Below, piece by piece: positions 1-64,000 of a stretch of DNA of 64,000 nt. This DNA is from a virus. Position 1 is the first letter of the stretch, and every line of letters starts with the position of its first letter. The notes under the pieces were generated by a model, which was not told where the DNA came from, did not search any database, and saw nothing but the letters and a program-made list of their open reading frames with translations. The position numbers and the translations under genes are program-made. The stretch lies in the IMG/VR virus record IMGVR_UViG_3300042695_002264, positions 96,001 to 160,000 of that record, one strand, 5' to 3'.

Positions 1-897
1 TACATTACATGCAGACCCATTCAGTTTGCAAAAAACATCAGAAAAATATTCAGCACTGCAAGATGTTAAATATGAAGACATGCTTAGCCTATTAATAAAA
101 CTATCTTCACTTTCCTCCATTGCCTTTGTATAGCTTTTTGGCATATTATCATCTAAATTTAAAATTCTATCTGAAAAATTAATTAAAATTGGCATAATTT
201 GATCGTATTTGTCGTAAACCAGCTCTGCTGTTTTTGCATAATCTTGGCCATTTACTTTAAGATCTAATTTTGGGTACTCATTGTATCCCCATTCAAACAC
301 ATATGAGATATCATTTGTATAAAATTCGCCAGAAAAATTATCTCTTACGATAAACTTATCAAAAGATTTTATATTTAAAAACACTGCCGTATTAAAAATT
401 AAATTAAATGCTTGATTAATATAAAATTTCTTTGCTAATTCTGGCTGATCTTTGAATTTTGGCCCAGAGCATTTAATTGAGAAAAATTTTGCTTTTTTTA
501 AAATTCCTCCTGACATCAATCGCGCAAAATCTTGATCTAAAAAATATGGAAAATTACAATAAAATATTTTTTGGCTATTTGATTTTTTTAATAAAAGATC
601 GTATATCTCTTTTCTCTCTGATATAGAATTACAAACAGGTGATTCGCATATAATATGTTTATTAAGCTCTATACCGCTTTTGAGATATTCAAATTGAGAT
701 TCTCTTGGTGTGGCAACATACCACATGTCTGAATTATTTAAAATTTCTTTTTTATTAGATTCATCAGTAGATGTATTTATTGATCCAATAATTTCATATC
801 TGCTGATAAGGCTGGCAACATTTTGGACTTGGGAGCCCCACTCGCCATTACCAATAATAGCAACTTTTATTTTAGACTTGGCTAATTGAGAATCCAT
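1..897 (-). CDS. Gfo/Idh/MocA-family NAD-dependent oxidoreductase (partial, runs off window start; not in ORF track)
   Basis: Hand translation from ATG at 897: MDSQLAKSKIKVAIIGNGEWG (Rossmann GxGxWG), then YVATP and KHIICESP (family motif KHVxxEKP, here ESP). Confidence 0.7.
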   Translation of the reverse strand, partial: MDSQLAKSKIKVAIIGNGEWGSQVQNVASLISRYEIIGSINTSTDESNKKEILNNSDMWYVATPRESQFEYLKSGIELNKHIICESPVCNSISERKEIYDLLLKKSNSQKIFYCNFPYFLDQDFARLMSGGILKKAKFFSIKCSGPKFKDQPELAKKFYINQAFNLIFNTAVFLNIKSFDKFIVRDNFSGEFYTNDISYVFEWGYNEYPKLDLKVNGQDYAKTAELVYDKYDQIMPILINFSDRILNLDDNMPKSYTKAMEESEDSFINRLSMSSYLTSCSAEYFSDVFCKLNGSACNV

Positions 898-906
898 ATG
901 TTTAAT

Positions 907-934
907 ATTATATGTGTCTTTTGTAACAAATCAA
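907..934 (-). promoter_or_regulatory. sigma70-like promoter TTGATT-16bp-TATAAT
   Basis: Read on minus strand; the -10 box ends 9 nt before the ATG at 897. Confidence 0.5.
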
Positions 935-3277: not shown

Positions 3278-4324
3278 TTATATGTCAGATTCTATCATTT
3301 CTTTGATCAAGTCATCAAATGATATTTGCGGTACCCATCCAAGTTCAGATTTTGCCATATTGGAATCGCCAAGCAATAAGTCTACTTCAGCTGGTCTATA
3401 AAAAGCAGGACTAATTTTTACAAGCGTATTTGATTTTATGTTATTTTCTTGAGTAACAAAATTATCAATAACAAGCTTCTCATCTATGCCGTCACCCTCC
3501 CAATGATAGTATTTAATACCAGCATAGACAAATGCTTTTTCAATAAATTCTTTAACTGTATGTGTTTTTCCAGAAGATAGTATATATTCTTTTGGTTCAT
3601 TTTGATTTAGCATTATCCAAATGCCTTTTATAAAATCTTTAGCATGGCTCCAATCTCTTTTTGCGTAAATGTTTCCAAGCTCGAGCGGCTCAAAGACTTC
3701 TCCAGAAGTTATAGCTTTTTTAATTTTACCGATATGTTTTGTTATTTTTCTAGTAACGAATTCTTCACCGCGCCTTGGGCTTTCATGATTATATAATAAT
3801 CCTTGTATCGCAAAAAGGTTATAACTTTCACGGTATACTTTTACAATATGTCTAGCGGCTGCTTTTGCGGCGCCGTATGGGCTTCTTGGCTTTAGGGGGT
3901 GTTTTTCATCTTGTGGGCTGTAATCAACATTGCCTAATTCTTCTGAGGATCCGGCATTATAAAATCTACATTTTGGGGCATGCTTTCTAATCGCCTCTAA
4001 GCATCTTATTACGCCTATTGAATCGATATCAAATGTTTGTTCTGGAATTTGCCATGATGCGCCAACAAAGCTTTGAGCAGCTAAATTTATAAAATAATCT
4101 GGCACAATATCTCTGACAATATTATCTATTGATTGAGAATCTGCAAGGTCTCCAGTTATTAGTTTGAATTTGTTATTGTTTAATAAATGTTTTATATTTT
4201 TATAATTATTTGTTGACGCTCTACGAACCATGCCATAAATTTCATAATCGGTATTTTCCAGCAAATATTCTGCCATATAAGACCCATCTTGTCCAGTCAC
4301 CCCAGTAATTAAAACTTTTTTCAT
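3278..4324 (-). CDS. gmd: GDP-mannose 4,6-dehydratase
   Basis: LITGVTGQDGSY, NLAAQSFV, PRSPYGAAK, NHESPRRGEEFVTRKI, RDWSHAKD, RPAEVDLLLGD. Confidence 0.97.
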   Translation of the reverse strand: MKKVLITGVTGQDGSYMAEYLLENTDYEIYGMVRRASTNNYKNIKHLLNNNKFKLITGDLADSQSIDNIVRDIVPDYFINLAAQSFVGASWQIPEQTFDIDSIGVIRCLEAIRKHAPKCRFYNAGSSEELGNVDYSPQDEKHPLKPRSPYGAAKAAARHIVKVYRESYNLFAIQGLLYNHESPRRGEEFVTRKITKHIGKIKKAITSGEVFEPLELGNIYAKRDWSHAKDFIKGIWIMLNQNEPKEYILSSGKTHTVKEFIEKAFVYAGIKYYHWEGDGIDEKLVIDNFVTQENNIKSNTLVKISPAFYRPAEVDLLLGDSNMAKSELGWVPQISFDDLIKEMIESDI

Positions 4325-8691: not shown

Positions 8692-9525
8692 TTATTTTAT
8701 AGACATATCAAATATCATCTCTTCTATAGATAATATTTTACCATTCCATAACTGGCTATTCATTGATTGATCTATCGTAGATAATGTTTTATTAACAGTA
8801 ATGTCACAAAGGCTAGGAGTAATATCAATATTTTTTTTAAAATACTTTTTAAATAATTCGAGTAAATGATATTTGCTAGCTGTATCTTGCGGAACTATAT
8901 GCTGAACATTATTGACTTGTATATTATTTGATATTATATTTTCACATATTTTGGCAAATTGAAGTGTTGTAATTCCATTCCAAAAATGATTAATATATCC
9001 TTCAATTGGGATATCGGTATTTTGGTTGAGAAACCAAGAAAGTAAATTTTTTGATGTATTTAGTTCCTCACCAATGATTGAGCATCTAAGATTGTAGACT
9101 TTCTCATTTTTGATTTCTCCAAGACTTTTAGTTTTTCCGTACACATCAACTGCATCATGCGATGATAGCTCTGAATAGTTGCCAGATTTTCCAGAAAATA
9201 CCCCATCGGTAGTTATGTTAATAATTCTTTTTGCAAGATCTGATTGCAATATCTTCATGGGAAGTAGCGTGTTGATATTGACTGCTTCAGACAAAAGATC
9301 TGGAGTTTTTTCCTTTGTTCTTAATATACCAGCACAATTAATTAAATAATCATAAGGCAAAAAGAAACTAAAGAGTTCATCGTAATGAATATAGAATATA
9401 TTATCCTCTCGACAAATTCTCCTATTTCTAGTAAAAGCATATATTGTCCAGTTTTTATTTTTGGATAGATATTTTACAACCGTATGCCCCAGCATTCCTC
9501 CAGAACCAACTACCGCAATTTTCAT
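8692..9525 (-). CDS. RmlD-like NDP-4-keto-6-deoxysugar reductase
   Basis: GSGGMLG, INCAG, TTDGVFSG, YGKTKSLGE, LRCSIIG. Confidence 0.85.
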   Translation of the reverse strand: MKIAVVGSGGMLGHTVVKYLSKNKNWTIYAFTRNRRICREDNIFYIHYDELFSFFLPYDYLINCAGILRTKEKTPDLLSEAVNINTLLPMKILQSDLAKRIINITTDGVFSGKSGNYSELSSHDAVDVYGKTKSLGEIKNEKVYNLRCSIIGEELNTSKNLLSWFLNQNTDIPIEGYINHFWNGITTLQFAKICENIISNNIQVNNVQHIVPQDTASKYHLLELFKKYFKKNIDITPSLCDITVNKTLSTIDQSMNSQLWNGKILSIEEMIFDMSIK

Positions 9526-10448
9526 AAATAAAAATTATTATCAGATAGTAGATTTTCTAAAGCTAGCTTATCCATTACATAATCTCTACTTGAAAATTCT
9601 TTATTAATAAAATTAACAGGCTTTTCAGAAGTTTTCGTTGGGCTAATTGCAAAATAATTGTCATGGCTTGTAGTTCTGAAAGCCTCCTCTTCGCTTATCA
9701 TTACTTCGTGTATTTTTTCGCCAACTCTTGGTTTTGTAATAGAATATTGCAATCCAAATTTTTCTTTATAAATATCAAAAAGATCTTTTATTTTGAAAGA
9801 TTTAATATTAGGAATTATTGTTGCCTGTGAAAAATTTTGCATGCTATATAGAATTAAGTCTATTGCATCTTCTATGGATAGCATAAATCTGGTCATTTCT
9901 TCTGAATATAAATTTAATTCATATTTATTTTCTAGCGCGTTTTTAATTAATGGTATAATAGATCCAGTTGAATTTGTTACATTTCCGTATCTGCATGATA
10001 CTAAAGGTACATGCGAGTTATTTACAATAAAAGATTGTTCAGCAACGAATTTGCAGGCGCCATATATAGTTGTTGCCGCGCATGCCTTGTCGCTTGAAAC
10101 AAAACATGCTGATTCAAAATTATTATCTTCAGCGGCAATTCTCGAATTTACTGCACCATTTATAATAGTATCTATTGCTTCAGTAGTGTTCTCGTCGCAA
10201 GCCGATATTTGCTTTAAGCTGGCTGTAAAAATGCCTACATTGCAATCTTTTGACTCTCTAATTAATCTATTTAAATTTCTAATATCTCCAACAACGCATT
10301 TTATTTTTGGATATTTTTTCTTTAATAAATAGTGCTTGGCCTCGTCTCTAGAAAAGCAAACAATTTCATTATCTTTATAAAGTCTTTCAATTAAATTTTT
10401 TCCAAGATATCCAGCGCCTCCAGTAATAAAAATTCGCTTGTTTTTCAT
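9522..10448 (-). CDS. CapD/FnlA/PseB-family UDP-GlcNAc 4,6-dehydratase
   Basis: ITGGAGYLG, SRDEAKH, GDIR, ASLKQI, SSDKA, YGACK, RYGNV..STGSIIP, MTRF, GEKIHE. Confidence 0.9.
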   Translation of the reverse strand: MKNKRIFITGGAGYLGKNLIERLYKDNEIVCFSRDEAKHYLLKKKYPKIKCVVGDIRNLNRLIRESKDCNVGIFTASLKQISACDENTTEAIDTIINGAVNSRIAAEDNNFESACFVSSDKACAATTIYGACKFVAEQSFIVNNSHVPLVSCRYGNVTNSTGSIIPLIKNALENKYELNLYSEEMTRFMLSIEDAIDLILYSMQNFSQATIIPNIKSFKIKDLFDIYKEKFGLQYSITKPRVGEKIHEVMISEEEAFRTTSHDNYFAISPTKTSEKPVNFINKEFSSRDYVMDKLALENLLSDNNFYL

Positions 10449-10451
10449 ATA

Positions 10452-11096
10452 TCATTTATGATGTATTGTAAATGTTTTATCTAAAAAATTTGTGCCAACG
10501 AGTTCACCAAATTCTTTATTGTATGGTCTTGTTTCGGCTAGTTTCCTAACTTGATTGCGGCATTCTTCTTGAGGCCAAGAGCATAAATTAGGAACAATGG
10601 CCCATTTATCAGCTAATAATTTTCTATTATTGTCGCTTGGGGGCCAAGAGCTTGGAATATTTAAAAATGGTATTTCTAAATCATAATAATACGCAATATT
10701 TGCTTCATTTAATCTAAATAAAAAATCCATATCTTCTTGACCGCCGCCGACAAATCTTTCATCAAAAAACCCTACCCTTCTTATAGTTTCTTTATGTATG
10801 CCAAAAAAACCAAGAGCATATAGGCCAACCAGCCCATAGCCAGATCTAAGTAATTGAATTATTTTATAAAAACTTTTGGATGATTCTGGTCTAGCCTTAT
10901 CCGATAAGAATATGCAATATTCTGATTTAGAGCTTAAAATAGATTGATTCATCATCTCGGAATAACTTTTGGGGTTATTTGGAGTAAATAAATCAAAATT
11001 TATATCAGGGGTTGAGCGTATTAATTCGTCCGCCAAATGTTGCCTATTGGAGTTAATTGTGCAAGAAAATAAAGTCTCGTTAAAAAAATTATTCAT
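10452..11096 (-). CDS. GT-A (GT2-like) glycosyltransferase
   Basis: VGFFDERFVGGGQEDMDFLFRL motif. Confidence 0.7.
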   Translation of the reverse strand: MNNFFNETLFSCTINSNRQHLADELIRSTPDINFDLFTPNNPKSYSEMMNQSILSSKSEYCIFLSDKARPESSKSFYKIIQLLRSGYGLVGLYALGFFGIHKETIRRVGFFDERFVGGGQEDMDFLFRLNEANIAYYYDLEIPFLNIPSSWPPSDNNRKLLADKWAIVPNLCSWPQEECRNQVRKLAETRPYNKEFGELVGTNFLDKTFTIHHK

Positions 11097-12303
11097 AAAC
11101 TTTTATTTCTGGTAATGGAATGATCCATTTGCCATTAAAATTTTTATTTCTTTTTATTATTTCATCAATAAAAGTATACGCAAAGCATAGGATATAGTCT
11201 GGCGGATCTGTATTTAAAATTTCAGAATTTACTATTGGTATATGATTATTTGGAGTAAAACATCCAACTTTTAAAGGCGCATCATCAATAATTAGTGGTA
11301 TCTCAGACTTATTTATATTATAAAATGCCATAAGTGTATTTGCTTGGCCAGAAGCTCCATATCCATAAATTTTTTTATTTTCACTTTTGAGTCTAGATAT
11401 CAAAGATTTAAGTTCAGCGCCAAGAGACTTTACATTATCAGAATAATCAAGATATGTATTGATATCATAAAGTTTTAAATCAATCTCCTCTTTTTCTAAA
11501 GATGATACGCTATCTTTAATTTCGTATGCTCCATTATGGCAAATATAATAGCGTACAGATCCGCCGTGTATGTCAATATGTTTAACATCGAATATTGATA
11601 AATCAAACTGATCCATTAAATATTTCATAGCTTTAAGGCTATAATAATACATATGCTCATGATATATGAAAGGAAATTGAAAATTTTTAATAATATTTCC
11701 AAGCCAATGTACCTCTATAATCGCTACCCCTTCGCTAGATAATAATTTTTTAATTCCAAAAGTAACATCTTTAATATTTTCGATATGGGCAAAGCAGTTG
11801 CTGGCGCTTATAATATCTGCCGTTCCATGTTCAGAACTTATTTTATCTGCAAGGCTACTATTAAAGCATGTGTTATACAGTATAGTACCATCTGGTTGAA
11901 AGTTTTTTGCAACATTGCTTGGGTCTACGCCAATAATTTTTTCATACTGTGTGCCTATCAGATTGCCAAGCATAGAAAAATCATTGCAACCAATTTCAAC
12001 TATATTTTTATTATTTTTTGCTGACTTATATTCATTTGCCATTTCACCAAAATGAATTTTAAGAGTATTTATTGATCCTGTTTTGTAGAAATAATCGCTA
12101 AATAAAACTTCTGGAGAAATTACTTCATTCACTTGGACTAAAGAGCTTTCTGGGCAAAAAGAGACTGTTAGCGGATATTTAGATTCTGTTTTACATGACC
12201 CTTCATCTTTTAAAAATCCACCAGCCAATGCCGTATCGAAAGAAAAAAATGTTATTAAATTTTTTGATTCAGAAATTCTGCAATGATTATATTTTTTATA
12301 CAT
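11089..12303 (-). CDS. NDP-hexose C-methyltransferase (TylC3/EryBIII/NovU-like)
   Basis: YPL..FC...LVQ, EIGCND, GVDP, NCFAHI, IYHEHMYYYS, HGGSVR, GYGASG, DD.PLK.G.FTP. Confidence 0.88.
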   Translation of the reverse strand: MYKKYNHCRISESKNLITFFSFDTALAGGFLKDEGSCKTESKYPLTVSFCPESSLVQVNEVISPEVLFSDYFYKTGSINTLKIHFGEMANEYKSAKNNKNIVEIGCNDFSMLGNLIGTQYEKIIGVDPSNVAKNFQPDGTILYNTCFNSSLADKISSEHGTADIISASNCFAHIENIKDVTFGIKKLLSSEGVAIIEVHWLGNIIKNFQFPFIYHEHMYYYSLKAMKYLMDQFDLSIFDVKHIDIHGGSVRYYICHNGAYEIKDSVSSLEKEEIDLKLYDINTYLDYSDNVKSLGAELKSLISRLKSENKKIYGYGASGQANTLMAFYNINKSEIPLIIDDAPLKVGCFTPNNHIPIVNSEILNTDPPDYILCFAYTFIDEIIKRNKNFNGKWIIPLPEIKVYE

Positions 12304-13096
12304 AGGATCCTAGTGATATTTTTTGTCTAAATTGTTGAATTGAAATTCCTGCTTTTAACTGAAAGTTTTCTAAATTATTTTCATTTTTAAGTTCTTGTGG
12401 AAGCCTCTTCATTGAAGCAGAAGATGTGTGAAAAACAAAGGATTTATTTGAGCAAATATGTTTAAAGTTAAATCCGTGCAATTTCCATAGGTTGTAGGCA
12501 AACATATCATCGCGTCCGTACCCGCTACGAAAAGTCATATCCCATTCTCCAGAATATCCACCAATAGAGAGATAATCTTTGGATTTTACGCATATTGGGT
12601 GACAATATGATATGATCATTTTGTCTTGATTGTAAAGATTGTTACTCCATTTGCCAATGAATACGTTGTAGGTTTCAATAGAAATTTCTGATTTTAAATC
12701 TGTATCCACAACAACGCATGGGTTATTGCTGTAAAAATTTTCCACAAGCATACATGAAGATGATGCTGGGTAATTTTTTTCTATAATTTGAATCAGATCA
12801 TCTGCAAAATCTAGACAAAAAAGCATATCATCATTGGTGTTTAAAAAATATTCAGAATTCTCTATAAATGGCTTTAAATAATCTATTGCCAATACGCCTC
12901 TGTTTTCTGGAACAGCAACGAATGGTATTTTCAAATTTAAAAGAAAATCTATCGACTCTATATCGGCCTCATTTAAAACAACAGCAATCCCGTCTTTGCT
13001 AAAATCAAGGCTTTGCATTATTGAAAAAATACAACCCTTTAAAAGATTTGGGTTATTCCAAGAGCATAATCCAACTAATAATCTTTTTTTATGCAT
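12296..13096 (-). CDS. GT2-like glycosyltransferase (start reassigned to MHKKRL)
   Basis: ENRG, NTNDDM (DxD-like), IGGY...GYGRDD, VFH. Confidence 0.7.
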   Translation of the reverse strand: MHKKRLLVGLCSWNNPNLLKGCIFSIMQSLDFSKDGIAVVLNEADIESIDFLLNLKIPFVAVPENRGVLAIDYLKPFIENSEYFLNTNDDMLFCLDFADDLIQIIEKNYPASSSCMLVENFYSNNPCVVVDTDLKSEISIETYNVFIGKWSNNLYNQDKMIISYCHPICVKSKDYLSIGGYSGEWDMTFRSGYGRDDMFAYNLWKLHGFNFKHICSNKSFVFHTSSASMKRLPQELKNENNLENFQLKAGISIQQFRQKISLGSYV

Positions 13097-13847
13097 ATGT
13101 ATCATTGTATATTGTTGGCGGCAATTGGCCAGATTTTTTATAAAAATCTTTATTAATTTCAACACAATTTTTTAAAGGATTCCAATTGTAAGAGCATGCG
13201 CCAAAATGTGCCTCTTGGTATTCTATTTTATTCTTGCTTCTCTCATTATTAAGCCAAGTCATATGTTTTACATGAATATTATTTTTAGGAATAATTATGC
13301 TAGAAAGCTGCTTATAATCTACAGGCGCTCCATCTTTATTGCTATATAAAATATCATTATCCCAATAAAATTTATCAATAGTATAATTTTGATATGTTTT
13401 TTTGAATAATCTCGGCGGACAAAAACCATCTATCCAAGATTTTTCATCAAATATATAATTTTTAAAATTAATTTTGGCCCAAGCAACCCAGCTAAAATCA
13501 TCTCCATTTATAAAGTTTAGTAAACTTTCTATTTCTTTTTCTGTATAAAACTCATCTATATCTAAAATAAGAAACGTATCAGTGTTTGTATTTTGTTTTA
13601 AAAATTCCAATGGAACATTTCTAGCATTATGTTCGTTTACAATATTTTCATTATTATGAAATATATGACTATCTGGAATAAACTTGCTAAGCTCGTCTAG
13701 GCACGGTTTATTGTTTTGTTTTTGAAAATTTTCGAATTGAAAGCTGGCACATGCAGTTGGTATATTAAAATTCTTCCAAGGAGATAGGCATGGCTGCACA
13801 TACTCTTCAAGGGCGTAAGCTGACAGTATAATGGCTAAATTTCTCAT
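13089..13847 (-). CDS. GT-A glycosyltransferase-like protein
   Basis: EHNARN, ILDIDEFY, PRLF, KHMTW. Confidence 0.65.
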   Translation of the reverse strand: MRNLAIILSAYALEEYVQPCLSPWKNFNIPTACASFQFENFQKQNNKPCLDELSKFIPDSHIFHNNENIVNEHNARNVPLEFLKQNTNTDTFLILDIDEFYTEKEIESLLNFINGDDFSWVAWAKINFKNYIFDEKSWIDGFCPPRLFKKTYQNYTIDKFYWDNDILYSNKDGAPVDYKQLSSIIIPKNNIHVKHMTWLNNERSKNKIEYQEAHFGACSYNWNPLKNCVEINKDFYKKSGQLPPTIYNDTYA

Positions 13848-14635
13848 ATATCTAATCCATGTTTGAAGTATTCGTCTTTAAAATCAGACTCTTGAGTGTT
13901 TAATACAACATCTCTTCCACTATAGCCTGACCATTCGTTTTGCCAAAAATTTTTATTAATCTCTCCTCGCCTGCTTAAATCTTGATATCCGTAGTGGATA
14001 ACAAATGGTATTTGTAATGTTTTTAGAATTTCTATTGGAGATTTATGTTTAAAGTCTGGATGATGTGTAATATTTATAGATTTGCACAAATTGCCCAGTT
14101 CGTCTATTAGCTCGCAACCATCGCTTTTATCTTTATCAAATTTACCATCAGATCTTCTTGCAAAATTAACAATGCCTCTATGCATACCCTTTTTTCTATG
14201 GATATACCATTTTGTGCCTATATCTCTATAGTGATTTTTATCCTTATAAAGGTTAATAACGGGAATCATAAAAGCATATCCATCTAAAATTATATCTTTA
14301 TTGACCTTGATAAAGTTTTTCCAAATATTTGGATCATTAATTCTTTCATCTCCGTCAAGTTGAACACATATATCATTTGAGCAATTTTGAAGGGCAATAT
14401 TCTTTAGCTTTCCATCTTTAGCAAATGTTGTAGAATTTGCATCATAACTCATAAATACTTTAACTTTGCTATTGTTGTTTGCAATATTTTGTAATATGTC
14501 TTGTGTATTGTCTTCATTATCAGGTATTGTGGCAATACAAATCTCGTCAGCTAATTGAGAAAAATTTTCTATAGCAGAATTTATATCAAACTTATTCTTT
14601 TCTATATTGAACGCTGTTGTATAAATTGATATCAT
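13844..14635 (-). CDS. GT2 glycosyltransferase
   Basis: ISIYT..FN, LADEI, KNIALQNCSND, QLDGDE, IHYGY. Confidence 0.75.
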   Translation of the reverse strand: MISIYTTAFNIEKNKFDINSAIENFSQLADEICIATIPDNEDNTQDILQNIANNNSKVKVFMSYDANSTTFAKDGKLKNIALQNCSNDICVQLDGDERINDPNIWKNFIKVNKDIILDGYAFMIPVINLYKDKNHYRDIGTKWYIHRKKGMHRGIVNFARRSDGKFDKDKSDGCELIDELGNLCKSINITHHPDFKHKSPIEILKTLQIPFVIHYGYQDLSRRGEINKNFWQNEWSGYSGRDVVLNTQESDFKDEYFKHGLDI

Positions 14636-14637
14636 AA

Positions 14638-15426
14638 TTAATCCCAATACTTAAAAACATGCGCTTTCCATCCTTCAGGGACTATATTATCACATTTTTT
14701 TGTAGATAAAATTTCTTTCCATTGATCTTCTGAAAATGGATAGTATGTATGTTTCATCCTGACATCTCCCGATACTATGCTAACAACCTTTGTATCAGTT
14801 CTATGCCTCCATACTGTTCCATCTTTTTCTTGGCGTACGCTCCATTTGCCACAATCTGCAAAAATAGGATAATTTTTACCATTATGGCTTATATAAATAG
14901 ATTTATATTTTAAATTATTTTCTTTTATATAATTTTGGATACACTCCTCGGTCCATTTGATTTCACTCCATGGGCCTGGACCACCAATACTCTTTGGTAT
15001 TTTATTGTAGAATGATGGACTTATAAACTGAGCCCTTTCTGAATAGTTGCCATGTCCTTGGTTACCAGCAAGATCTATATAAGCGTACCTATCGTTTTCA
15101 ATAAGTTTTACCATTGATTCAATAAAATTATCATCAATTACTGCTAATTGAAGCTGGTCTACTTGTATATAGAATGCATAATCGGCAAAGGATTGAGCAA
15201 ATAGCTGTATTGTTCCTGCGCCGCAACCATTATTTCGGCTATTAACTATAAGATCATCTATTAACCCATCCTGCTTGAACTTCTCTGAATATCTCTCGGA
15301 AGATCCATTATCTAAATATGTAATTTTATAATCAAACTTAGAATTTGATCTTATACTATTTAATAAGTTTTTGGCTTCATCTGGCCTATTATAGTCAAGT
15401 ATAAGATACTCAATAACATATTTCAT
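14638..15426 (-). CDS. GT2-like glycosyltransferase
   Basis: LDYNRP, LDNGSS, NNGCGAG, YIQVDQ. Confidence 0.7.
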   Translation of the reverse strand: MKYVIEYLILDYNRPDEAKNLLNSIRSNSKFDYKITYLDNGSSERYSEKFKQDGLIDDLIVNSRNNGCGAGTIQLFAQSFADYAFYIQVDQLQLAVIDDNFIESMVKLIENDRYAYIDLAGNQGHGNYSERAQFISPSFYNKIPKSIGGPGPWSEIKWTEECIQNYIKENNLKYKSIYISHNGKNYPIFADCGKWSVRQEKDGTVWRHRTDTKVVSIVSGDVRMKHTYYPFSEDQWKEILSTKKCDNIVPEGWKAHVFKYWD

Positions 15427-16033: not shown

Positions 16034-16034
16034 A

Positions 16035-17111
16035 TTATTTTATACTTTCTAGTATTTGACTGGTAGTTTTTTCCCAAGTAAATTCTTCTTGGAGTTTTAG
16101 CCCATTTTCATTTACAGGATTAGATTTTACCTTTTCGATTGCTGCATCACATGCGTCAATAAATTCACTTGATGAAAAATCAAAAATATTACCTTGATTA
16201 AATGGCTGACCCTCTCTAAAGAAAATATTATCATATGCTGGAATTTTACCATTTGGAGTTACGCAAACAGAATTTTCTTCGTTCATCCAATCTTTATATC
16301 CATGAGCTTTTAGCCCAACGCAATGCTTTCCAAGAGCAACAGAAGTGAATTCTGGTAACCCCCATGTTTCACCACCAGACATAGCAATTATAATGTGATT
16401 TGCATTTAAAAATTTATTATAATCCGCGTTGTTGGGCATCCATGGCAGAAAATTGATATTAAAATAACTTTTACCCTCTAATGCCTGAGATATCATTGCG
16501 CTTTGATCTTCTGGCTTCAAGAAATTATTAAAAATGGCACAATTTAAATAAACATCATGCCTATTTCCATATTTTTTTGCCCATGCATTTAAAATTTTGA
16601 GGTGATGCTTTCTTTTTTCTAGTTTTCCAGCCAGACCAAAGCATATTCGATTGTCAGGATAGTTAATATTTTCAATTTTAAATGTATTTGAATCAAAACC
16701 AAGGGGTATGGCCTTACAATTAATATCAAAATTAGAAAAAAGATTTGCGTAATGCTTTGATGGGACAAATACCATTTCTTGATTTTTCAAAATATTAAGC
16801 TCACGCGCAGTTGGGCTATCCAACTCATAAAAAGTATAGAGATATTGTTTTTCTGAAACACTTTCTAGACTTCCGGTAATATGCCATAATTTTAGAACAG
16901 GATTCTTTTTAGAATGGGTTTCTTCTGATTTAATAGAGTTTGAAACAATCCAATTCACAAAATCATTTTCTGATTCAAGCATCGAATGATCAGGTTGACC
17001 TATATGAAATATAGATGGGTTTATTTGCTTTTTAAAAATCTCTCTAGCAATATTATTTGAACATTGACCCAAGCTAGTCTGATTGAATGGAAAATTTATA
17101 GCGAATTTCAT
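16035..17111 (-). CDS. GT4 (GT-B) glycosyltransferase
   Basis: VFVPS, IPLGFD, GKLEKRK, SGGETWGLPEF. Confidence 0.85.
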   Translation of the reverse strand: MKFAINFPFNQTSLGQCSNNIAREIFKKQINPSIFHIGQPDHSMLESENDFVNWIVSNSIKSEETHSKKNPVLKLWHITGSLESVSEKQYLYTFYELDSPTARELNILKNQEMVFVPSKHYANLFSNFDINCKAIPLGFDSNTFKIENINYPDNRICFGLAGKLEKRKHHLKILNAWAKKYGNRHDVYLNCAIFNNFLKPEDQSAMISQALEGKSYFNINFLPWMPNNADYNKFLNANHIIIAMSGGETWGLPEFTSVALGKHCVGLKAHGYKDWMNEENSVCVTPNGKIPAYDNIFFREGQPFNQGNIFDFSSSEFIDACDAAIEKVKSNPVNENGLKLQEEFTWEKTTSQILESIK

Positions 17112-17116
17112 AAACG

Positions 17117-17144
17117 ATAATATTTAAATGATTTGAAAAATCTA
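17117..17144 (-). promoter_or_regulatory. sigma70-like promoter TAGATT-16bp-TATTAT, 5 nt before ATG
   Basis: Same geometry as the promoters at 18576, 18189 and 5805. Confidence 0.45.
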
Positions 17145-17174: not shown

Positions 17175-17200
17175 CTTATTTGATTTATAGATAGTTAGAA

Positions 17201-17491: not shown

Positions 17492-17496
17492 AGTTT

Positions 17497-21054: not shown

Positions 21055-22278
21055 ATGTCACATCTATTAGAAACTTACAGCTTGCAAACTGGAGCAAAGG
21101 CATCAAAGCCTTTTATAATTAAAAACTTTTTCCCAGTACCAAAAAAGTACATAACCATTCACAATTCTAGCGGAATGGGCGCAAAAAATTATGATCATTT
21201 TCAAGATGTAATTGATGAGATTTTAGTGAAGTTAAAAGACAATGGTATTGAAATTGTACAAATTGGTGGAGCAGAAGATCTAGCCCTCAATGGATGCGTT
21301 CATTTACATGGCAGAACAAATTATCACCAAACCGCATATATCATTCAAAATTCACTCCTTCATATTGGAAATGACAGTTTTCCCGTCCATATCGCATCTG
21401 CGGCGGACAGGCCCATTATAGCTCTATATAGTATAACCACGCCAAGTATTGCTGGCCCATGCTTTAATTCAAAAGAAATAAATGACTATAAAGTTTTTTG
21501 CTTTTCTCCAGACTATAAAGGCAAAAAGCCATCCTTTAATCCCAACGAAAGTCCAAAAACAATAAATACAATAAATTTTGAAAATATTATTGAAGCAATT
21601 GAAAAGATATTAAATATCGATACTGGATATAATATAAAAACTATATTCAAAGGGGACAAATATCTTGCAAGAGTTATAGAATTTATTCCAGATACATTGC
21701 TTAGACCAGACTTTGCTGGCGGTAGTTTGATAAACATGAGAGTTGATCTGTGTAACGGCGATATTGATGAAAATTTAATATTTGCAAATTTAAAAAGTAG
21801 GAAGTTTAACATATTTTTAAAAAATTCTAAAAAAATTAAAAATTTGCATATATTGCCTATGTTAAAAGAAAATATTGCTAATATATTCATTGATGTTACT
21901 GATGAGGTGGTAGATATTGAATACATATCATCATTAGTAAATTATGGAATAAAACCAACAATATTATATACTGGAGAAGATGAAGATTATTTTAACGAAA
22001 TTAAAATAAATTTAATAAATTTTAATTTGAATTTTATAAAATACTCTCCACAAAAAATAAAAATAGAGGATATTGTAAAAAATAACAATATTGATAATAT
22101 TATATTCAAAACAAATCGCCTCATTTTAAGTTCTGGAAAATTATACCTTTCCATAGCATCTTACTTAAATGGTCAAAGCTCAAACAGTAATTTTGAAAAA
22201 TTAAACGAAATTAAAAACTACAAAGATCTTGACAAAGAATTAGAATTCTGTTATCTTTATATCAAAGAAGATAAATAA
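21055..22278 (+). CDS. GT9 (heptosyltransferase-like) C-terminal lobe plus unknown domain
   Basis: YITIH..S...KNY, IVQIGG, LHGRT, HIGNDSFPVHIASA, IALYS. Confidence 0.75.
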   Translation: MSHLLETYSLQTGAKASKPFIIKNFFPVPKKYITIHNSSGMGAKNYDHFQDVIDEILVKLKDNGIEIVQIGGAEDLALNGCVHLHGRTNYHQTAYIIQNSLLHIGNDSFPVHIASAADRPIIALYSITTPSIAGPCFNSKEINDYKVFCFSPDYKGKKPSFNPNESPKTINTINFENIIEAIEKILNIDTGYNIKTIFKGDKYLARVIEFIPDTLLRPDFAGGSLINMRVDLCNGDIDENLIFANLKSRKFNIFLKNSKKIKNLHILPMLKENIANIFIDVTDEVVDIEYISSLVNYGIKPTILYTGEDEDYFNEIKINLINFNLNFIKYSPQKIKIEDIVKNNNIDNIIFKTNRLILSSGKLYLSIASYLNGQSSNSNFEKLNEIKNYKDLDKELEFCYLYIKEDK

Positions 22279-48189: not shown

Positions 48190-49629
48190 TTAAATATATC
48201 TTAAAATAACTAAATTTCTAATAGTTTCATTTTCTGCTTGTTGCGCTGCTTCTTGCTCTGGGGTTATTGTAACTAATCTACCACTATTAATATTCAATGT
48301 TTTTGTATTATTGCTGTAATATAATCTACCCTCTTGGTACGGAATATTCGTGTCAGAGTTCGGAATAAAATCAATTGTATTAAAATTTCCACTCGTATAT
48401 TTGACTGTTATGGTTTGTGATGGGTAACCATCTTTGCTAATCTCTATTCCGCTTACGCCATCTATATTCACTGCACCATATGAATTATTTAAACTTGTAA
48501 TTCCAGAATTTCCTGCCTCAATAAGTCCTGTCAAAAATCCAGAAAGATTATCTAAATATCCTGATATAATTTGAATACCAGTATTCAATGTAGAAGTTGC
48601 TTGTCCAGAAAAAATATCAAAAATATCTTTTGTTACTACATTTTTAACATAATTTGCTGAAGCAATTGCGCGACCCCCAAGAACAATATGTAAATTTGTA
48701 AGATTATTTAGCCCCCTATAGATATCTATTCCAACAATTTGTCTTGGTAAAATATATTTATCTTGACCTATTAAATTAAAAGACGCAAATGTGCCAGTCG
48801 GCATTGTAAAATTTGTTATTGTTGTTCGCGTATTAGATTTTGGATCACGATAATAAAATCTACCACTAAGCGGCTGCTGAATTGTTAATGGATCGCCATT
48901 TCCAATCGTACTAGATCCAGTTGATGCCGAATAAACACCCCATCTTGTAGCTATAAATTCATTTGGCAAATAATATTCCAGAACGGTTTCTCCAGTTATA
49001 GATCCATATTCCAAGAAAAAAGAAATGGCAGAATCTCCACTACTCATTATTACGCCATCGCTTACATTGGCTTCATTTATATCGTTATATCTCCCTCTTA
49101 AAGAAACTATTAAGTCTTCTGCCCCAGACAATCCAGAATATATATTCCATCCAATAATCGTATCACCGCTAATTGTAGTTTCTGGAATTACTCCAAAATT
49201 AAAAAACTCACCAGAATTTATCCAAAACGAAGTAACTGTTGTTTTGCTATTTGGATCGGTCAAACTTCTAGTATAAAAATCTCCAGTAAGTGGGCCAAAT
49301 AATAGTTGACTTGGATTTGACGGATTTACATGCGTTGGTCCAAGACCACTTCTTCCTAAAGAAACGCTCCATCCAGTAACAATATATGATGATGCTGTAT
49401 ATTCCTCATATAATGACATTCCAGTATATGGAAAAGATGCAAAATAACTTGGGGGCTGTAGGCCTATTTCGTATGGCAATACAATAAATGGATTTGCTCC
49501 AGGCACAGCCAATGGCCTTCCATCAATAAGTAAAGTTTCTTTCCAATCATCAACTGTCACATGGCTGCCGCTCATAAAAATAGAGGCAACATTCAGATGT
49601 GAACTAGATGTTTTAATTCTATTTTTCAT
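48190..49629 (-). CDS. Putative fibre protein with tandemly duplicated ~135-aa domain
   Basis: PLTGDFYTR..IIGWNIYSGL vs PLSGRFYYR..IVGIDIYRGL; one shaft repeat; about 23 [S/T]G. Confidence 0.55.
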   Translation of the reverse strand: MKNRIKTSSSHLNVASIFMSGSHVTVDDWKETLLIDGRPLAVPGANPFIVLPYEIGLQPPSYFASFPYTGMSLYEEYTASSYIVTGWSVSLGRSGLGPTHVNPSNPSQLLFGPLTGDFYTRSLTDPNSKTTVTSFWINSGEFFNFGVIPETTISGDTIIGWNIYSGLSGAEDLIVSLRGRYNDINEANVSDGVIMSSGDSAISFFLEYGSITGETVLEYYLPNEFIATRWGVYSASTGSSTIGNGDPLTIQQPLSGRFYYRDPKSNTRTTITNFTMPTGTFASFNLIGQDKYILPRQIVGIDIYRGLNNLTNLHIVLGGRAIASANYVKNVVTKDIFDIFSGQATSTLNTGIQIISGYLDNLSGFLTGLIEAGNSGITSLNNSYGAVNIDGVSGIEISKDGYPSQTITVKYTSGNFNTIDFIPNSDTNIPYQEGRLYYSNNTKTLNINSGRLVTITPEQEAAQQAENETIRNLVILRYI

Positions 49630-51065
49630 TATTCAATATATGGAGAAACGCTAAAATTTGTGAAATTTAAGTTTGCAGTGAAAATAACATCATGAACGCC
49701 ATCCAGACCATCCCCAGGATCATTTCCAGAATATCCACTTGCCCATACATACAATCTTTCATCGTTTCCTCCGCTCAAAAAAATGTTATATTTATTTGTG
49801 CCACCAAAAAGATCTGATTCGTCTTTTATATCAATTTGTAAATTTGTTGCACGTTGAGCCATGAAATATTTTTTACCATATATTCCAAAATTTTTTGCAT
49901 CAAAACTTGCATCAAAATCTGTAATATCATACCTAACGGCCATATAATTTATCTCGCCAAATAAAATTGTTCCCGTTTGAAGAAAAATTCCAGAATATGA
50001 AGTTTTTGGAACTTTCAAGGTTTTCATAATTTCCTTTCCAGATAAGAAAGCTTTCATATGCATATTTGTAGTAAATGTATTATCTACAGACCCACCAAAA
50101 GCAACAGCATATGGGTGTTTAAATGTTTGATTGTTAAAAATTCCATTTATTAATGAAGACCCTGTTACATTAACAAAATTACTTCCAGTATTATTTACAA
50201 AAGTCGAAAAACTATTTTGTAAATATCTAGAATCAACTGAATTAAAAGTATTTATGCCAGTATTTCCCTGCAACCTATTGCGATCTCCATCAATTAAACA
50301 TGATGTATTTTGATTAATTATATTCTCGTTGCCAATATAATTAATATTTAAATTATTACCTGCAAAAAACTGATTAACGCCCCAGCCTCTACCCGTATAT
50401 CCAACAAAAATACTGTTTAATCCAGTAACGGTGTTTAGATTAATATCTGAAGTTCCAATCAAAGAAACTGGATTTCCTTGAAGTCCATTTATTGAATTTA
50501 CCCCAGAAAATGCTGCTTGACCTGCATCAATAAAAATTGATTGGCCTGTAACAGTAACTTGAGCGCCATTTCTGCCAATTAAAGATATGTTACCAGTGGC
50601 ATTGTTTAATTTTCCTATACCAGAATTACGAATTGTTAATAAAGTTTTATTAGAATTATATACTGTTTCTATACTATTTGCCCCAGTAATAGAAATCCCA
50701 CTAATGGCCAATGTGGATAAATTAATTGGCCAAACATCAACATTTCCATATCCAGAAATATTCTGAAAGCTAAATCCTCCTCCAGCACCGCCAGAAGATC
50801 CAATATAAATTGTGTTTCCGCTTACTCTCGTATAAATTCCGCTTACTCCAGTGACAGAAACATTTCCAGCCAATCCGCCCAAAGATTGAACAAAATTTCC
50901 ATTTTCGCCATTTAGTGCGAAAAATAACGTATTTCCAATAGGAACAGATTTTAATCCAGAAACTCCACTTAAATTGCTATAATTTGGATATAAAGGATCT
51001 CCGTATGTTTTAACTAAGCCAGAAATATCTGGGTGAAGTTGTGAAGCGCGAATTAATGTTCTCAT
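49629..51065 (-). CDS. Putative head fibre protein with beta-shaft repeats
   Basis: Repeats VxSLxGxxGxVxxxGxxGI...TIxI; about 25 [S/T]G. Confidence 0.6.
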
Positions 51066-60352: not shown

Positions 60353-61471
60353 ATGAATATTTTAGTCAAACAATTTCAAGAATTTTATAAAGAACCACAA
60401 ACCAAAGTGTGTGGAAAATGGAATATTTCTATTTTAGATAGAAACGGTAACGAATCTTTTCCATTTGGAAAAGAAATGAAAAAAAATCTGATATTAAATC
60501 AAGGCTTAGATCTGTTAATTGCTGGCAAATATTATGGCGAATATTCAATTTTTAACTGGAATACAATACCATCATTTTTAATTGGTGGCGCTGTATATGG
60601 AAACGGATTGCTGCCAGCAAATGAATCTGACATATCATTAACAAATGAAATTGCAGAAACTTCTATAATTAATGATGATTCTTGTAGCATTACAGATAAT
60701 TATACGAACGGAACGCGCACGTACAGAAAGGTATATGACTTTCCAACAATAGAGATTGGAGATCCGAATACTCAAATTAGTGAAGTTGGCCTATTTTCAA
60801 ACTGGCGAAATAATAAAACTCTTTTTTCAAAATTTCTTTTACCAAGAGTTTTGCGGCTAGATTATGGGCAATGGATTAGATTATTTTATGATTTTACAAT
60901 TGGTTCGGATATGATTGTAACCCCAAATAATATTAATTTATCGTCAGGCAGTTTTAACGCGTCTGGTTTAATGAAATTATGCGGAAGATTTGATGATATA
61001 TTTGGCAGTTTTGATGCGAATGGGAACCCTGTAATTGTTTTCGGAGATTCTCCTCGTGCTTCTTTTATACCATTTTATGAAAATTTTTGCGCCGAGATAT
61101 CCACATGTCAAACAGAATGTTTTGGAACCGCATATTTGTTAGCGCCAGGGATAAGCAACTTTAACGATACAAACACAAAAATCATATCCGAATGGATTGG
61201 CAATAGATTAGAAAAAAATTTAAATACAATAAATCCATCAGAATATATAGATGGAAATTTTTATAGAGATATTGAATATATATTTGATTATAATAATCCA
61301 ATTTATAATGAATTAACTGAAGGAATATTATTTACAGTCCTTCGTGGTTCTGATACTAGCCCAAGACAAAACACAATTGATGGGTGGTTGTGGAAATTTA
61401 ATAATGGTCAAATTAAACAATCATCAAAAAAAATTGTAATAGGATTAAGACAATCTATAAATAGAATATAA
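60353..61471 (+). CDS. Tail-collar/fibre-base-like protein (DUF3751-like)
   Basis: NLILNQGLD, GNG..P...D..L..EI, ISEVGLF...LFSKF. Confidence 0.5.
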   Translation: MNILVKQFQEFYKEPQTKVCGKWNISILDRNGNESFPFGKEMKKNLILNQGLDLLIAGKYYGEYSIFNWNTIPSFLIGGAVYGNGLLPANESDISLTNEIAETSIINDDSCSITDNYTNGTRTYRKVYDFPTIEIGDPNTQISEVGLFSNWRNNKTLFSKFLLPRVLRLDYGQWIRLFYDFTIGSDMIVTPNNINLSSGSFNASGLMKLCGRFDDIFGSFDANGNPVIVFGDSPRASFIPFYENFCAEISTCQTECFGTAYLLAPGISNFNDTNTKIISEWIGNRLEKNLNTINPSEYIDGNFYRDIEYIFDYNNPIYNELTEGILFTVLRGSDTSPRQNTIDGWLWKFNNGQIKQSSKKIVIGLRQSINRI

Positions 61472-63508
61472 ATGAATACCGCGAATATAAATACATATTT
61501 TGGTGCAAAGTGGAATATCGAAGTATGTAAGTCTGGTGAAAATGGTATAGAATCTTATTTTCCATTAGGTGAAAAACTTAAAAATAATATGATTCTAGAT
61601 CATTGGCTAGAATCACTTATTTATTTATATTCTCCTTCTGGTGGGGCAGTAAAGGCATATTGCGATAATGGGCTATCATTGGCAGGAATAACAAGAGGAG
61701 CAATGCATATAGGTGCAGGTTCCATCCCGCCAAACTATCAACAAACTGGATTACAAATTCCATTAAAATCAACTTCATATATAAGGCCATTTTTTAATCA
61801 ATGCACGGGCATTTATTATCCAGAATCAGGCATGGCCGTTATTAGTAAAAATTACGACTTTGGTATTGAAAATAATATAGTAACTTATTCAGAAGCTGGA
61901 TTTCGGCCTGGCATTGCTGATGCGTTACCTACCGGAAAAAGAAATTGGCTATGGTCAAGATTTGTATTTACTAAAGAGACTGGAGTTTCTGGATATATAT
62001 ATGCAAACAGCGGAAGTATGGGAATTACTGGAATGGATCTTAGCGGTGTATTTGTAGATAATAATCAGTATGATTTAAGAAAACCAACGGATCCACTTTA
62101 TAATGGACTTAGTGGATTGCCATCATTTGAATTGGGATGGAGATATAACTGGCCAGAAAATTCTGGTATGTTTTTAATTGATCAAAGCGGCAGCACTACA
62201 GGTTTTGTTTATAACCCTAAAAATATTACAGAGCTAGTAACTGGATTTATAAGTGGATATTTAAGTGGCGGAAATTTTTATCCATTTACATTATCATCTT
62301 ATCCAGCAGAATCAAGTGGACTTAGTGGAATTTATTTGCAAGATGGGATAACAAATACTTTATATTTTTCATCTGGTGGATTTAATGAATTTTCTGGATT
62401 CACTGGAAAATATTTTAATACGAGTAGTGGATTTCAATACACTGGATTCGATCAAGGCTATTCTTTATACGGTAGTGGTTTTTATCCAACTAGCGGGATA
62501 TTAACTGGTAGCATGACAGGAATTATTGGCTCAAGAAACGTACTAAAACTTGACGGGTATATTACAGGAACTATTGGATTTAAAAATATTACAAACCCAA
62601 TAACTTTAAGCACAGGAGAATTTTTAAAATTAAGATATGATGTTTATATGCAGATACCTGCAATAGTTAACCCAATTTTAGTTACCGGCGACGATATAAC
62701 TCATGGAGAATTTAACGGAAGCGGTCAATTAAAACTAATAGGCAAACAAACAAGCATGTTTGGCACAATCGATGGGGATGGAAAAGTTACCCCAGGTATT
62801 GGAATTTGGTGGCCACTTCATAGAACAAACTATTCAAAATATAGCCGAAGCCAATGGGATAATCTGGCGGAACCAAATGCTCACTTATCTGCATTAATGG
62901 TAGCAAGTGGAGTTAGCGGTGGTGGGGTAAATTTTAATGACTCTTTTCCAGAAACAAACACAACCTCTCCAATTGTTAGCGCGCAGCTTGATGATGAAAT
63001 ACGTTTTTGTGATACTCTTGAGCCAAAAATTGGAGACTGTGGAACCGGACTAAATAAACGATCTTATTTTGAAAAACGATACTATTCAAGCAAAGGATTA
63101 ATGCAAAGCCCTTCATGGCCACTATACTCACATTCTGGTGTGCGCGTGTACAATTATATAGCGCATAACCGTCCATCTGCAATATGGCCAAAAAGCATAG
63201 ATATTCAAATGATTTTTCCTGGACCTTATCCAAATCAAGATACTGGAATTAATGGTTTTTCTATATGTGGCGCATCAGAAGGAACGGTTTGCGGTGGAAG
63301 AACCATTGCGGATGGTCAAGGAAACGCATATAGACCCGAGCAATACATTAAGCCTACTTTATACGAAAATACAGGGGCGTATCTTGATTGCGGATTAACA
63401 CTTCCATACTCTGCGTGGTATTATAAATTCAACAATCCACAAATGAAATATGAAGATCAAATAATTAATTTATATTTAACATTTTCTTTGGATAGAATAA
63501 CTGTATGA
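61472..63508 (+). CDS. Paralog of 60353-61471 with ~200-aa [S/T]G-rich insertion
   Basis: KWNI...FP.G...KN.IL, YDF, SEAG, SRF, FN.SG.LKL.G, W.+KFNN.Q.K shared with the paralog. Confidence 0.6.
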   Translation: MNTANINTYFGAKWNIEVCKSGENGIESYFPLGEKLKNNMILDHWLESLIYLYSPSGGAVKAYCDNGLSLAGITRGAMHIGAGSIPPNYQQTGLQIPLKSTSYIRPFFNQCTGIYYPESGMAVISKNYDFGIENNIVTYSEAGFRPGIADALPTGKRNWLWSRFVFTKETGVSGYIYANSGSMGITGMDLSGVFVDNNQYDLRKPTDPLYNGLSGLPSFELGWRYNWPENSGMFLIDQSGSTTGFVYNPKNITELVTGFISGYLSGGNFYPFTLSSYPAESSGLSGIYLQDGITNTLYFSSGGFNEFSGFTGKYFNTSSGFQYTGFDQGYSLYGSGFYPTSGILTGSMTGIIGSRNVLKLDGYITGTIGFKNITNPITLSTGEFLKLRYDVYMQIPAIVNPILVTGDDITHGEFNGSGQLKLIGKQTSMFGTIDGDGKVTPGIGIWWPLHRTNYSKYSRSQWDNLAEPNAHLSALMVASGVSGGGVNFNDSFPETNTTSPIVSAQLDDEIRFCDTLEPKIGDCGTGLNKRSYFEKRYYSSKGLMQSPSWPLYSHSGVRVYNYIAHNRPSAIWPKSIDIQMIFPGPYPNQDTGINGFSICGASEGTVCGGRTIADGQGNAYRPEQYIKPTLYENTGAYLDCGLTLPYSAWYYKFNNPQMKYEDQIINLYLTFSLDRITV

Positions 63509-64000
63509 TTATAGCCAATCAAAGATCTTCTGAAAAGCATAAATTCATACTTGTAGCCAATCAGTATTTTTCGCTAATTAATAAGCCACGAAACCTTCCA
63601 ACTTACCAAATAGGGGCAATAACAGAATTGATAAACGCACTGTACGAATCAAATTTATGGGAAAAATTTGTTGCAGTATATCCATTCGTTGGCGATGGTA
63701 GTTCTGAAAAAAACAGTTTAAATTTAATAGATCCATATAAATATAAAATTAGCTGGAGCGGATCTATTATATTTAATAAATTTGGTATTAATGGAAATGG
63801 TGGGATAGGATTGACAGGAATTAAATTGGTTGATTTAAGCGATTTTACAAACGTTCATTTAAGCGCGTATACGCGCACAGCAATAACCAATACTATTGGG
63901 CGAGGAAGACTTATTGGGGCAAATACACAAAATAGACTTGTTGCCATAAGAGACGTTGGCGCGCTAGAAATAAATTATAATAAAGAAAATGGTATAGTTG
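63505..64000 (+). CDS. Paralog of 59156-60352 (partial, runs off window end; not in ORF track)
   Basis: ATGA overlap; hand translation gives NLWEKFVAVYPFVG...NSLNL...NVHLSAY. Confidence 0.7.
   Translation, partial: MIIANQRSSEKHKFILVANQYFSLINKPRNLPTYQIGAITELINALYESNLWEKFVAVYPFVGDGSSEKNSLNLIDPYKYKISWSGSIIFNKFGINGNGGIGLTGIKLVDLSDFTNVHLSAYTRTAITNTIGRGRLIGANTQNRLVAIRDVGALEINYNKENGIV

Follow-up and report, generated by a model that had tools for sequence, protein, structure and literature searches.

Ser-Gly and Thr-Gly dipeptides (together [ST]G) are heavily over-represented in a set of fibre-type proteins encoded by the virus of IMG/VR record IMGVR_UViG_3300042695_002264. The bias is real, directional, composition-corrected and limited to proteins of fibre or tail-tip type, and its four-residue context, hydrophobic-[Ser/Thr]-Gly-hydrophobic, probably reflects the fold of one class of trimeric beta-fibre module in this lineage. 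The dipeptide had been proposed earlier, from the sequence alone, as the acceptor sequon for dense O-glycosylation of exposed virion proteins by glycosyltransferases (GTs) of the phage itself (the original prediction), an explanation that we now consider unlikely.

Sequence and tests

The window is the whole 64,000-nucleotide stretch analysed here, bases 96001-160000 of the 170,518-bp record, which is rated complete. It contains a head module, a tail module anchored by a 1680-aa tape measure protein (31954..36996, minus strand; PHROG tape-measure families, E 1.8e-43), a sugar and glycosyltransferase region (1-23057) and, from 60353 on, plus-strand fibre genes. Open reading frames (ORFs) are named by their lower window coordinate. 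No cultured phage matched the genome's DNA or its capsid protein, the terminase found only distant matches among cultured phages (20-24% identity), and no match to the [ST]G proteins, the GT4/DUF4214 protein or the GT9-like protein in full length came from the cultured-phage collection, in which no independent test case was found.

For enrichment, the observed number of [ST]G in each protein was compared with 2000 composition-preserving shuffles of the whole protein and expressed as a z-score. A local version of the test confined the shuffling to blocks of 10 or 20 residues.

The [ST]G bias

Six window proteins carry 14-39 [ST]G each where 5-14 are expected (z 3.8-7.9). Three are encoded on the minus strand within the tail module: a 388-aa tail-tip or fibre protein (23632..24798; 19 vs 4.7 expected, z 7.3, with three G[ST]), a 599-aa protein of the same type (27080..28879; 31 vs 10.2, z 7.6, and 6.8-7.6 under local shuffling) and a moderately rich 518-aa protein whose gene immediately follows that of the tape measure (30398..31954; 14 vs 6.0, z 3.8). 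Two more minus-strand genes follow the portal gene, the first encoding 478 aa (49629..51065; 25 vs 11.2, z 5.0) and the second 479 aa (48190..49629; 23 vs 9.6, z 5.1, with four G[ST]). The sixth is a 678-aa fibre protein on the plus strand (61472..63508; 39 vs 14.0, z 7.9), in which 25 of the 39 sites lie within residues 170-381, a local cluster that had been noticed by eye. The earlier hand counts of SG and TG were reproduced exactly, both for the rich proteins (19/388 in ORF 23632, 31/599 in ORF 27080, 23/479 in ORF 48190 and 25/478 in ORF 49629) and for the comparison proteins (capsid 3/371, portal 4/631, terminase 2/634, RNR 9/774), and the composition-preserving shuffles that had been suggested as a check leave the enrichment of the five originally named proteins standing, at the z-scores just given.

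Capsid, portal, terminase, RNR and tape measure score between -1.1 and +1.1 (the tape measure 0.6), and the tail tube candidates are likewise unbiased. ORF 24795 (24795-27068), a 757-aa protein of the tail module, serves as an internal negative control: it has 88 Ser and 59 Gly, yet only 6 [ST]G against 9.8 expected (z -1.3). Across the 170.5-kb genome 12 proteins, all of fibre type, reach a z of at least 3.8; two of them, outside the window, score 11.9 and 12.9, the top one having 83 sites in 1261 aa. The bias is thus confined, as had been claimed, to proteins of fibre and tail-tip type.

With shuffling confined to blocks of 10 or 20 residues z remains 4.1-7.6, so local composition is not the cause. 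The order of the two residues matters: [ST]G exceeds G[ST] in each of the five named proteins (binomial p 4e-5 to 1e-3), and the 25 [ST]G against 7 G[ST] first counted in ORF 49629 were found again.

Specificity, flanks and codons

In the 12 biased proteins 435 of 855 Gly (51%) are preceded by Ser or Thr, as against 14.5% in the rest of the proteome. Both hydroxyl residues contribute, SG occurring 259 times vs 88 expected (2.9-fold, z 20.6) and TG 176 times vs 62 (2.8-fold, z 16.1); no other residue, be it Asn, Asp, Pro, Lys or Glu, precedes Gly more often than expected. The reverse order is not enriched (120 G[ST] vs 435 [ST]G). Phe and Ile are enriched directly after Gly, and the hydrophobic context described in the original prediction holds, with 52% hydrophobic residues at position -1 and 56% at +2 over a background of 35%. 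The spacing of sites along the proteins is irregular.

A DNA-level cause was considered and rejected because the codons at the motif are diverse: both Ser families (AGY and TCN) and Thr codons are in use, which argues for selection at the protein level. Separately, A-ending Ser and Thr codons are avoided before GGA at the motif in the window genes at 23632-63508 (TCA 17/196 vs TCT 93/247; ACA 52/255 vs ACT 102/207), which may reflect avoidance of Shine-Dalgarno-like AGGA within genes.

Fibre nature of the biased proteins

The biased proteins have no Pfam or PHROG family. They are encoded in fibre clusters and behind the tape measure and portal genes. An N-terminal region (BLAST) is common to ORF 61472 and its neighbour ORF 60353, an unbiased 372-aa tail fibre protein (60353..61471, plus strand; phrog_4176, E 1.4e-9; z -1.2), and BppL_N-type receptor-binding-protein motifs or PKD domains occur in some biased proteins encoded outside the window. 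Taken together, the gene places, the N-terminus of ORF 61472 and the BppL_N and PKD domains indicate fibre or adhesin proteins. Some of the biased proteins share repeated modules and common segments. For an 836-aa biased member HMMER found 23 representative homologues among 1.84 billion proteins.

A second fibre cluster lies outside the window at genome positions 61276-76982 (L062:1276-16982). Four of its proteins have BppL_N-like junction motifs of the form T-T-G-D-Q-T-I-S-G-I-K-T-F, sometimes twice per protein, and one of the cluster's proteins has PKD domains; a neighbouring 1058-aa protein contains five lectin-like Laminin_G_3 domains.

Conservation and distribution

ORF 49629 keeps the bias in all 23 of its homologues (36-95% identity; z 4.0-6.1), and the motif Gly is invariant at 10 of the 25 sites across the 24 sequences. 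Among homologues below 50% identity 75% of motif Gly are kept vs 51% of other Gly, and 63% of motif Ser/Thr remain Ser or Thr vs 44% elsewhere. Exchange between Ser and Thr dominates the motif columns, with an occasional Asn or Asp.

Hundreds of contigs belong to this lineage. The same composition recurs in other clades. In 31 distinct biased large ORFs beside the glycosyltransferase block there, 51% of Gly follow Ser or Thr, the flanks are hydrophobic, and Asn-Gly and Pro-Gly stand at 0.6-fold and 0.4-fold; in 63 unbiased ORFs at the same genomic position the fraction is 17%. A clade with 42-45% terminase identity had been taken as free of the bias, a view overturned by longer fragments, two of four of which contain biased ORFs; these fragments are at most 36% complete, lack the GT9 gene and are therefore uninformative on co-occurrence. 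Among well-known fibres, T4 gp5, gp10, gp12, wac and gp34-37 score -1.7 to +0.7 and TP901-1 Dit, Tal, BppU, BppL and NPS -0.5 to +1.4.

One distant relative has, flanked by its major capsid gene and its connector genes, an ORF of 1986 aa (G011:C1:11625-17585, L158-L159) that contains 146 [ST]G (z 11.7). Its product may belong to the same motif class, as a head fibre or a decoration protein.

Structure models

The AlphaFold2 (AF2) monomer model of ORF 49629 is poor (pLDDT 59, and below 50 in the N-terminal, motif-rich half). It shows beta-hairpins and repeats of short strands, its similarity to tailspike beta-helices in Foldseek is weak (TM at most 0.2), and in this low-confidence model none of the 25 motif sites falls inside a predicted strand.

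Residues 1-230 modelled as a homotrimer gave a score of 0.78, the best of three controls reaching 0.00. When the tool was calibrated, 20 of 30 proteins solved as one-chain pairs attained this mark, compared with 1 of 23 single-chain structures; our run used a custom alignment and three copies, and for it the calibration holds only roughly. The trimer model has 925-1057 contacts, of which three runs share at least 74%, with partner pLDDT of at least 71. Its lowest-error contacts are strand pairings between chains, such as residues 161-165 with 176-180. The model thus supports trimer formation by this region as an intertwined assembly. The interface list fails to separate motif residues from others: 12 of 15 motif Ser/Thr (residues 29-225) touch in copy 3, as do most other residues. 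An ESM Atlas model of ORF 61472 was set aside as unusable (pLDDT 0.23, no feature hits).

Co-occurrence with glycosyltransferase genes

If [ST]G were read by the glycosyltransferases, the bias might be expected to travel with the cluster, and co-occurrence had been suggested as a check. A trio of conserved core genes (ORFs 19101, 21055 and 22281) stands beside a large convergent ORF in 66 related loci, and that ORF is biased in 30 of them and unbiased in 36. In close and middle-distance relatives the trio lies beside biased fibres, and the block adjoins them in G000, G001, G002 and L066-L068. G014, a complete 211-kb relative, shares capsid, terminase, portal and tape measure and has homologues of ORFs 15423, 16035, 19101, 21055 and 22281, and it encodes no biased ORF: its highest z is 3.0, and nine ORFs of 934-6589 aa are unbiased. 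The largest of these nine, a 6589-aa ORF, is at G014:C1:185387-205156 (L263-L264), and the other eight have 934-3810 aa. Another complete relative, G013 (184 kb), combines the core with unbiased giant fibres and three small biased ORFs.

Co-occurrence therefore fails in one direction, with the core (16035, 19101, 21055, 22281) present in G014 without bias and standing beside unbiased fibres in 36 of 66 loci. Nor are the variable GT2-type genes common to the relatives that carry the bias, so no glycosyltransferase tracks the motif. The glycosylation idea has thereby lost its main genomic support. A GDP-mannose dehydratase gene lies within 10 kb at 8 of the 30 biased loci vs 1 of the 36 unbiased ones; we rejected this association as functional because it reflects synteny, the unrelated neighbours RNR and ORF 16035 differing too.

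Interpretation

We favour the reading in which the fibre blocks are beta-strand modules that would fold only as intertwined homotrimers. At the end of each short strand the chain would turn back at Gly, the hydroxyl residue before it may cap or stack at the corner, and the flanking hydrophobics would end one strand and start the next. In modules of this kind about half of all Gly would lie in the motif, and in fibres built otherwise the composition-expected 15-17%. Gly is the best-kept residue, the sites are fixed in position, the predicted strands of ORF 49629 contain none of them and one region models as a trimer, which argues for a signature at the level of the fold; the decoupling of the bias from the conserved core and its two-class distribution argue that it follows fibre module type and not the enzyme set. 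That the motif forms a turn or corner is our inference, as is the part played by its hydroxyl.

Several observations weigh against this reading. The only residues enriched before Gly are the two open to O-modification. Asn-Gly, Pro-Gly, Lys-Gly and Asp-Gly are common turn formers, and all four are depleted in the biased set (z -3.0, -4.6, -4.4 and -1.4), so generic turn rules fail to explain the specificity. Just 4 of 35 biased ORFs from other clades are detectably homologous to those of this phage (phmmer); the motif would then either outlast all other similarity or be re-created, and re-creation would fit something that reads it. No solved structure (PDB profile search) or named family (Pfam, PHROGs) matches the biased proteins, and the excess of sites at most one residue away from a strand end fell short of significance (52% vs 45%, p 0.29) in a model that is poor at most of them. 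The T4 and TP901-1 fibres, triple beta-helices among them, are unbiased, so the bias is no general property of phage or trimeric fibres. The strict hydroxyl preference and the survival of the motif beyond other similarity exceed ordinary turn preferences, and for this reason two explanations in which the motif is read are kept alive.

In one of these [ST]G would be the acceptor for dense cytoplasmic O-glycosylation of fibre turns by the soluble glycosyltransferases of the phage, possibly in addition to a structural role, much as TibC/AAH attach heptose to Ser at strand-loop-strand turns in the beta-helices of autotransporters. The hydroxyl-only enrichment and the dominance of Ser-Thr exchange fit it, as does the motif's presence in fibres that lack detectable mutual homology. 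So does a real sugar cluster, with GDP-mannose 4,6-dehydratase, reductase, C-methyltransferase and GT2 genes, that adjoins biased fibres in the close relatives and in 30 of the 66 loci, and whose enzymes have no membrane segment in a genome that lacks phosphoglycosyl transferase, Wzy/ligase, flippase and ThyA-family enzymes. The C-lobe of a split GT9 protein resembles TibC (Z 15.6), which modifies Ser-313 in a turn of TibA (PMC4358343). Against these stand the conserved core, which G014 has without any bias and which adjoins unbiased giant fibres at 36 of the 66 loci, and variable glycosyltransferases that biased relatives do not share. Gly is better conserved than Ser/Thr at sites whose positions are fixed, and capsid, tail tube candidates, portal and the Ser-rich ORF 24795 are unbiased. 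Bacterial autotransporter heptosyltransferases (BAHT), the type of TibC/AAH, are Ser-only, the four-Cys iron finger of TibC is absent from an alignment of 57 sequences, and the phage has no heptose-nucleotide genes (SIS_2 and CTP_transf_like families). The sequon proposal accordingly stands in part, in that the bias is hydroxyl-specific and the soluble cluster is real, and falls short in co-occurrence; it is neither shown nor refuted, and we hold it unlikely. A bolder form, to which we give slightly less credence still, is that [ST]G is a true acceptor signal common to several uncultured large-phage lineages, in which the soluble set would coat the turns of trimeric fibres with methylated deoxy-sugars; the enzyme reading the motif might then be a variable glycosyltransferase, or the split GT9/GT4 complex with clade-specific substrates.

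The other explanation has the motif read by a different trans-acting factor, such as a fibre-specific assembly chaperone or another Ser/Thr-modifying enzyme. Persistence or recurrence of the motif without detectable homology would suit this, as would the equal fraction of Gly in the motif (51%) in different clades and the small conserved family-less genes beside fibre genes, for example ORFs 22281 and 23062. Yet no candidate was identified, ORF 22281 occurs in genomes without bias too, and such a factor is superfluous if the fold itself fixes the motif; we hold this reading to be quite improbable. Least credible of all is a by-product of composition, internal repeats or a DNA-level signal. Repeats and common segments do inflate the z-scores of some biased proteins, and A-ending codons are avoided before GGA, but the bias outlives the block shuffles, is strongly directional (435 [ST]G vs 120 G[ST]), occurs in proteins such as ORF 49629 that have no evident internal repeats, draws on both families of Ser codons and persists in homologues with as little as 36% identity.

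Comparison with known systems

The adenovirus fibre shaft (triple beta-spiral) and T4 gp5 and gp12 (triple beta-helix) are intertwined homotrimers with short strands, conserved Gly at turns and hydrophobic flanks. The ORF 49629 trimer model, with its strand pairing between chains, resembles them. It differs in that the spacing of the motif is irregular and that sequence and confident structural matches are lacking, and T4 gp5, gp12, gp34 and gp37 themselves show no [ST]G bias (within the z range given above). The Ser-Gly xylosylation sites of animal proteoglycans likewise offer a Ser-Gly acceptor dipeptide; those sites have acidic flanks and a secretory-pathway xylosyltransferase, whereas the phage motif has hydrophobic flanks and uses Thr equally, and no such xylosyltransferase was found in the phage.

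A close parallel to the glycosylation idea is TibC/AAH with the adhesins TibA and AIDA-I. There a soluble cytoplasmic GT-B enzyme related to lipopolysaccharide heptosyltransferases modifies many Ser in the turns of a beta-helical adhesin, the enzyme gene adjoins the substrate gene, and one mapped TibA site is a Ser-Gly (PMC4358343). This site, Ser-313, lies within a Q-N-S-G-G-A-V turn, and TibC has an iron-finger motif of four conserved Cys (PMC4358343). That TibC, a WaaC-like enzyme, modifies a Ser-Gly turn of a beta-helix means that a turn with a structural role can at the same time be an acceptor site (PMC4358343). In the phage, residues 1-189 of ORF 21055 superpose on TibC (4rap_A) with Z 15.6 and a root-mean-square deviation of 3.0 over 174 residues, a GT-B heptosyltransferase fold. 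In the poor monomer model of ORF 49629 the motif lies outside strand interiors. The differences are that the phage enzyme is closer to WaaF (Z 17.7) and WaaC (Z 16.8) and is split across two genes; that no Cys is invariant or near-invariant among 57 ORF 21055 homologues, so there is no four-Cys iron finger; that Thr is enriched in the phage fibres as much as Ser; and that relatives have the core without the motif, adjacent fibres being biased at 30 and unbiased at 36 of 66 loci.

Mycobacteriophages carry glycans on the C-termini of capsid and tail-tube subunits (Freeman et al. 2023, as reported in PMC12619734). The likeness lies in phage-encoded glycosyltransferases beside structural genes with virion proteins as the proposed target; the difference is that here capsid and tail proteins are unbiased and the motif occurs only in fibre-type proteins. 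The portion of the mycobacteriophage glycosylation literature that was covered reports no sequon of this kind.

Significance

If the structural reading is right, the motif marks an undescribed and easily recognised class of fibre module, with half of its Gly in a single four-residue context, and would allow the fibre and receptor-binding proteins of uncultured large phages to be recognised by a simple test on the sequence. Were it a true acceptor signal, virion glycosylation of tailed phages would have its first described sequon, one with predictive use, and what the very common glycosyltransferase clusters of phages do could be tested directly. Under either reading the lineage has a GT9 enzyme permanently split over two genes and fused to a GT4 domain, as a conserved enzyme complex.

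Sugar and glycosyltransferase genes

The nucleotide-sugar enzymes of the original prediction are secure. They comprise a GDP-mannose 4,6-dehydratase (3278..4324, minus strand; PF16363, 378.6 bits), which is 68% identical in G001 and G002 and has no homologue found in G014, an RmlD-like reductase (ORF 8692; PF04321, 40.7 bits) with a Polysacc_synt_2 4,6-dehydratase-type enzyme (ORF 9522; PF02719, 173.8 bits) at 8692..10448 on the minus strand, and an NDP-sugar C-methyltransferase (ORF 11089; PF08484, 141.6 bits). The last belongs to a variable block (10452..14647, minus strand) that also holds weakly GT2-like ORFs 10452, 13089 and 13844, with weak PF10111 or PF00535 matches, and an ORF of no assigned function (12296); most genes of this block have no homologue in G001 and G002. 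The count of about eight glycosyltransferases proved generous: two pass Pfam cut-offs, namely the GT2 enzyme of the variable part (14638..15426, minus strand; PF00535, 29.1 bits vs cut-off 23.3) and the GT9 protein ORF 21055, and up to six more are weak matches. Among these is a conserved, weakly GT4-like protein of 358 aa (16035..17111, minus strand; PF13692, E 0.098) with homologues in G001, G002, G013 and G014.

The conserved core trio is on the plus strand. ORF 19101 (19101..21053, 650 aa) combines a GT4-like domain, DUF4214 and a C-terminal GT9 N-lobe; its PF00534 and PF13946 matches are weak, its ESM Atlas neighbours are viral GT4/DUF4214 clusters, and its C-terminal profile matches residues 7-64 of the GT9 structure 3tov (E 0.0024), with an invariant S-x-G-D. 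ORF 21055 (21055..22278, 407 aa) has a GT9 heptosyltransferase-like C-lobe (residues 1-189; PF01075, 52.7 bits vs cut-off 22; profile match to WaaF, 1psw, E 2.6e-11) and a second alpha/beta domain. Its AF2 model is confident (pLDDT 91.5), and it was this model that VIA-align compared with WaaF, WaaC and TibC. Of the donor-binding N-D-S ... H motif of GT9, D107 and H112 are invariant and G105, N106 and S108 near-invariant. The GT9 N-lobe with the catalytic G-D motif is not on the ORF 21055 polypeptide and sits at the C-terminus of the upstream gene product. ORF 22281 (22281..23057, 258 aa) is a conserved protein of unassigned family, without Pfam match, always downstream of the GT9 C-lobe gene. 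Across 80 related loci ORFs 19101 and 21055 are present in all and ORF 22281 in 78; the two-gene GT9 layout is found in 80 of 80 with variable intergenic spacing, which argues for a true heterodimeric design and not a frameshift error.

The tail genes begin at 23062, directly next to the block (8692-23057). None of the sugar or glycosyltransferase enzymes has a membrane segment, and the genome has no Bac_transf (phosphoglycosyl transferase), Wzy_C (ligase) or Polysacc_synt (flippase) gene, a combination that fits cytoplasmic protein glycosylation. ThyA-family genes, which would point to DNA hypermodification, were not found in the genome, nor were the two families tested for synthesis of the ADP-heptose donor, SIS_2 (GmhA-type) and CTP_transf_like (HldE-type).

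A sigma-70-like protein (17497-18144; weak region 2 and region 4 matches), conserved in relatives, separates the cluster from the plus-strand GT4/GT9 operon. At the head of that operon is a small protein with strong membrane segments and a weak DUF1360 match (18180-18602), and relatives have a gene of similar size in the same position.

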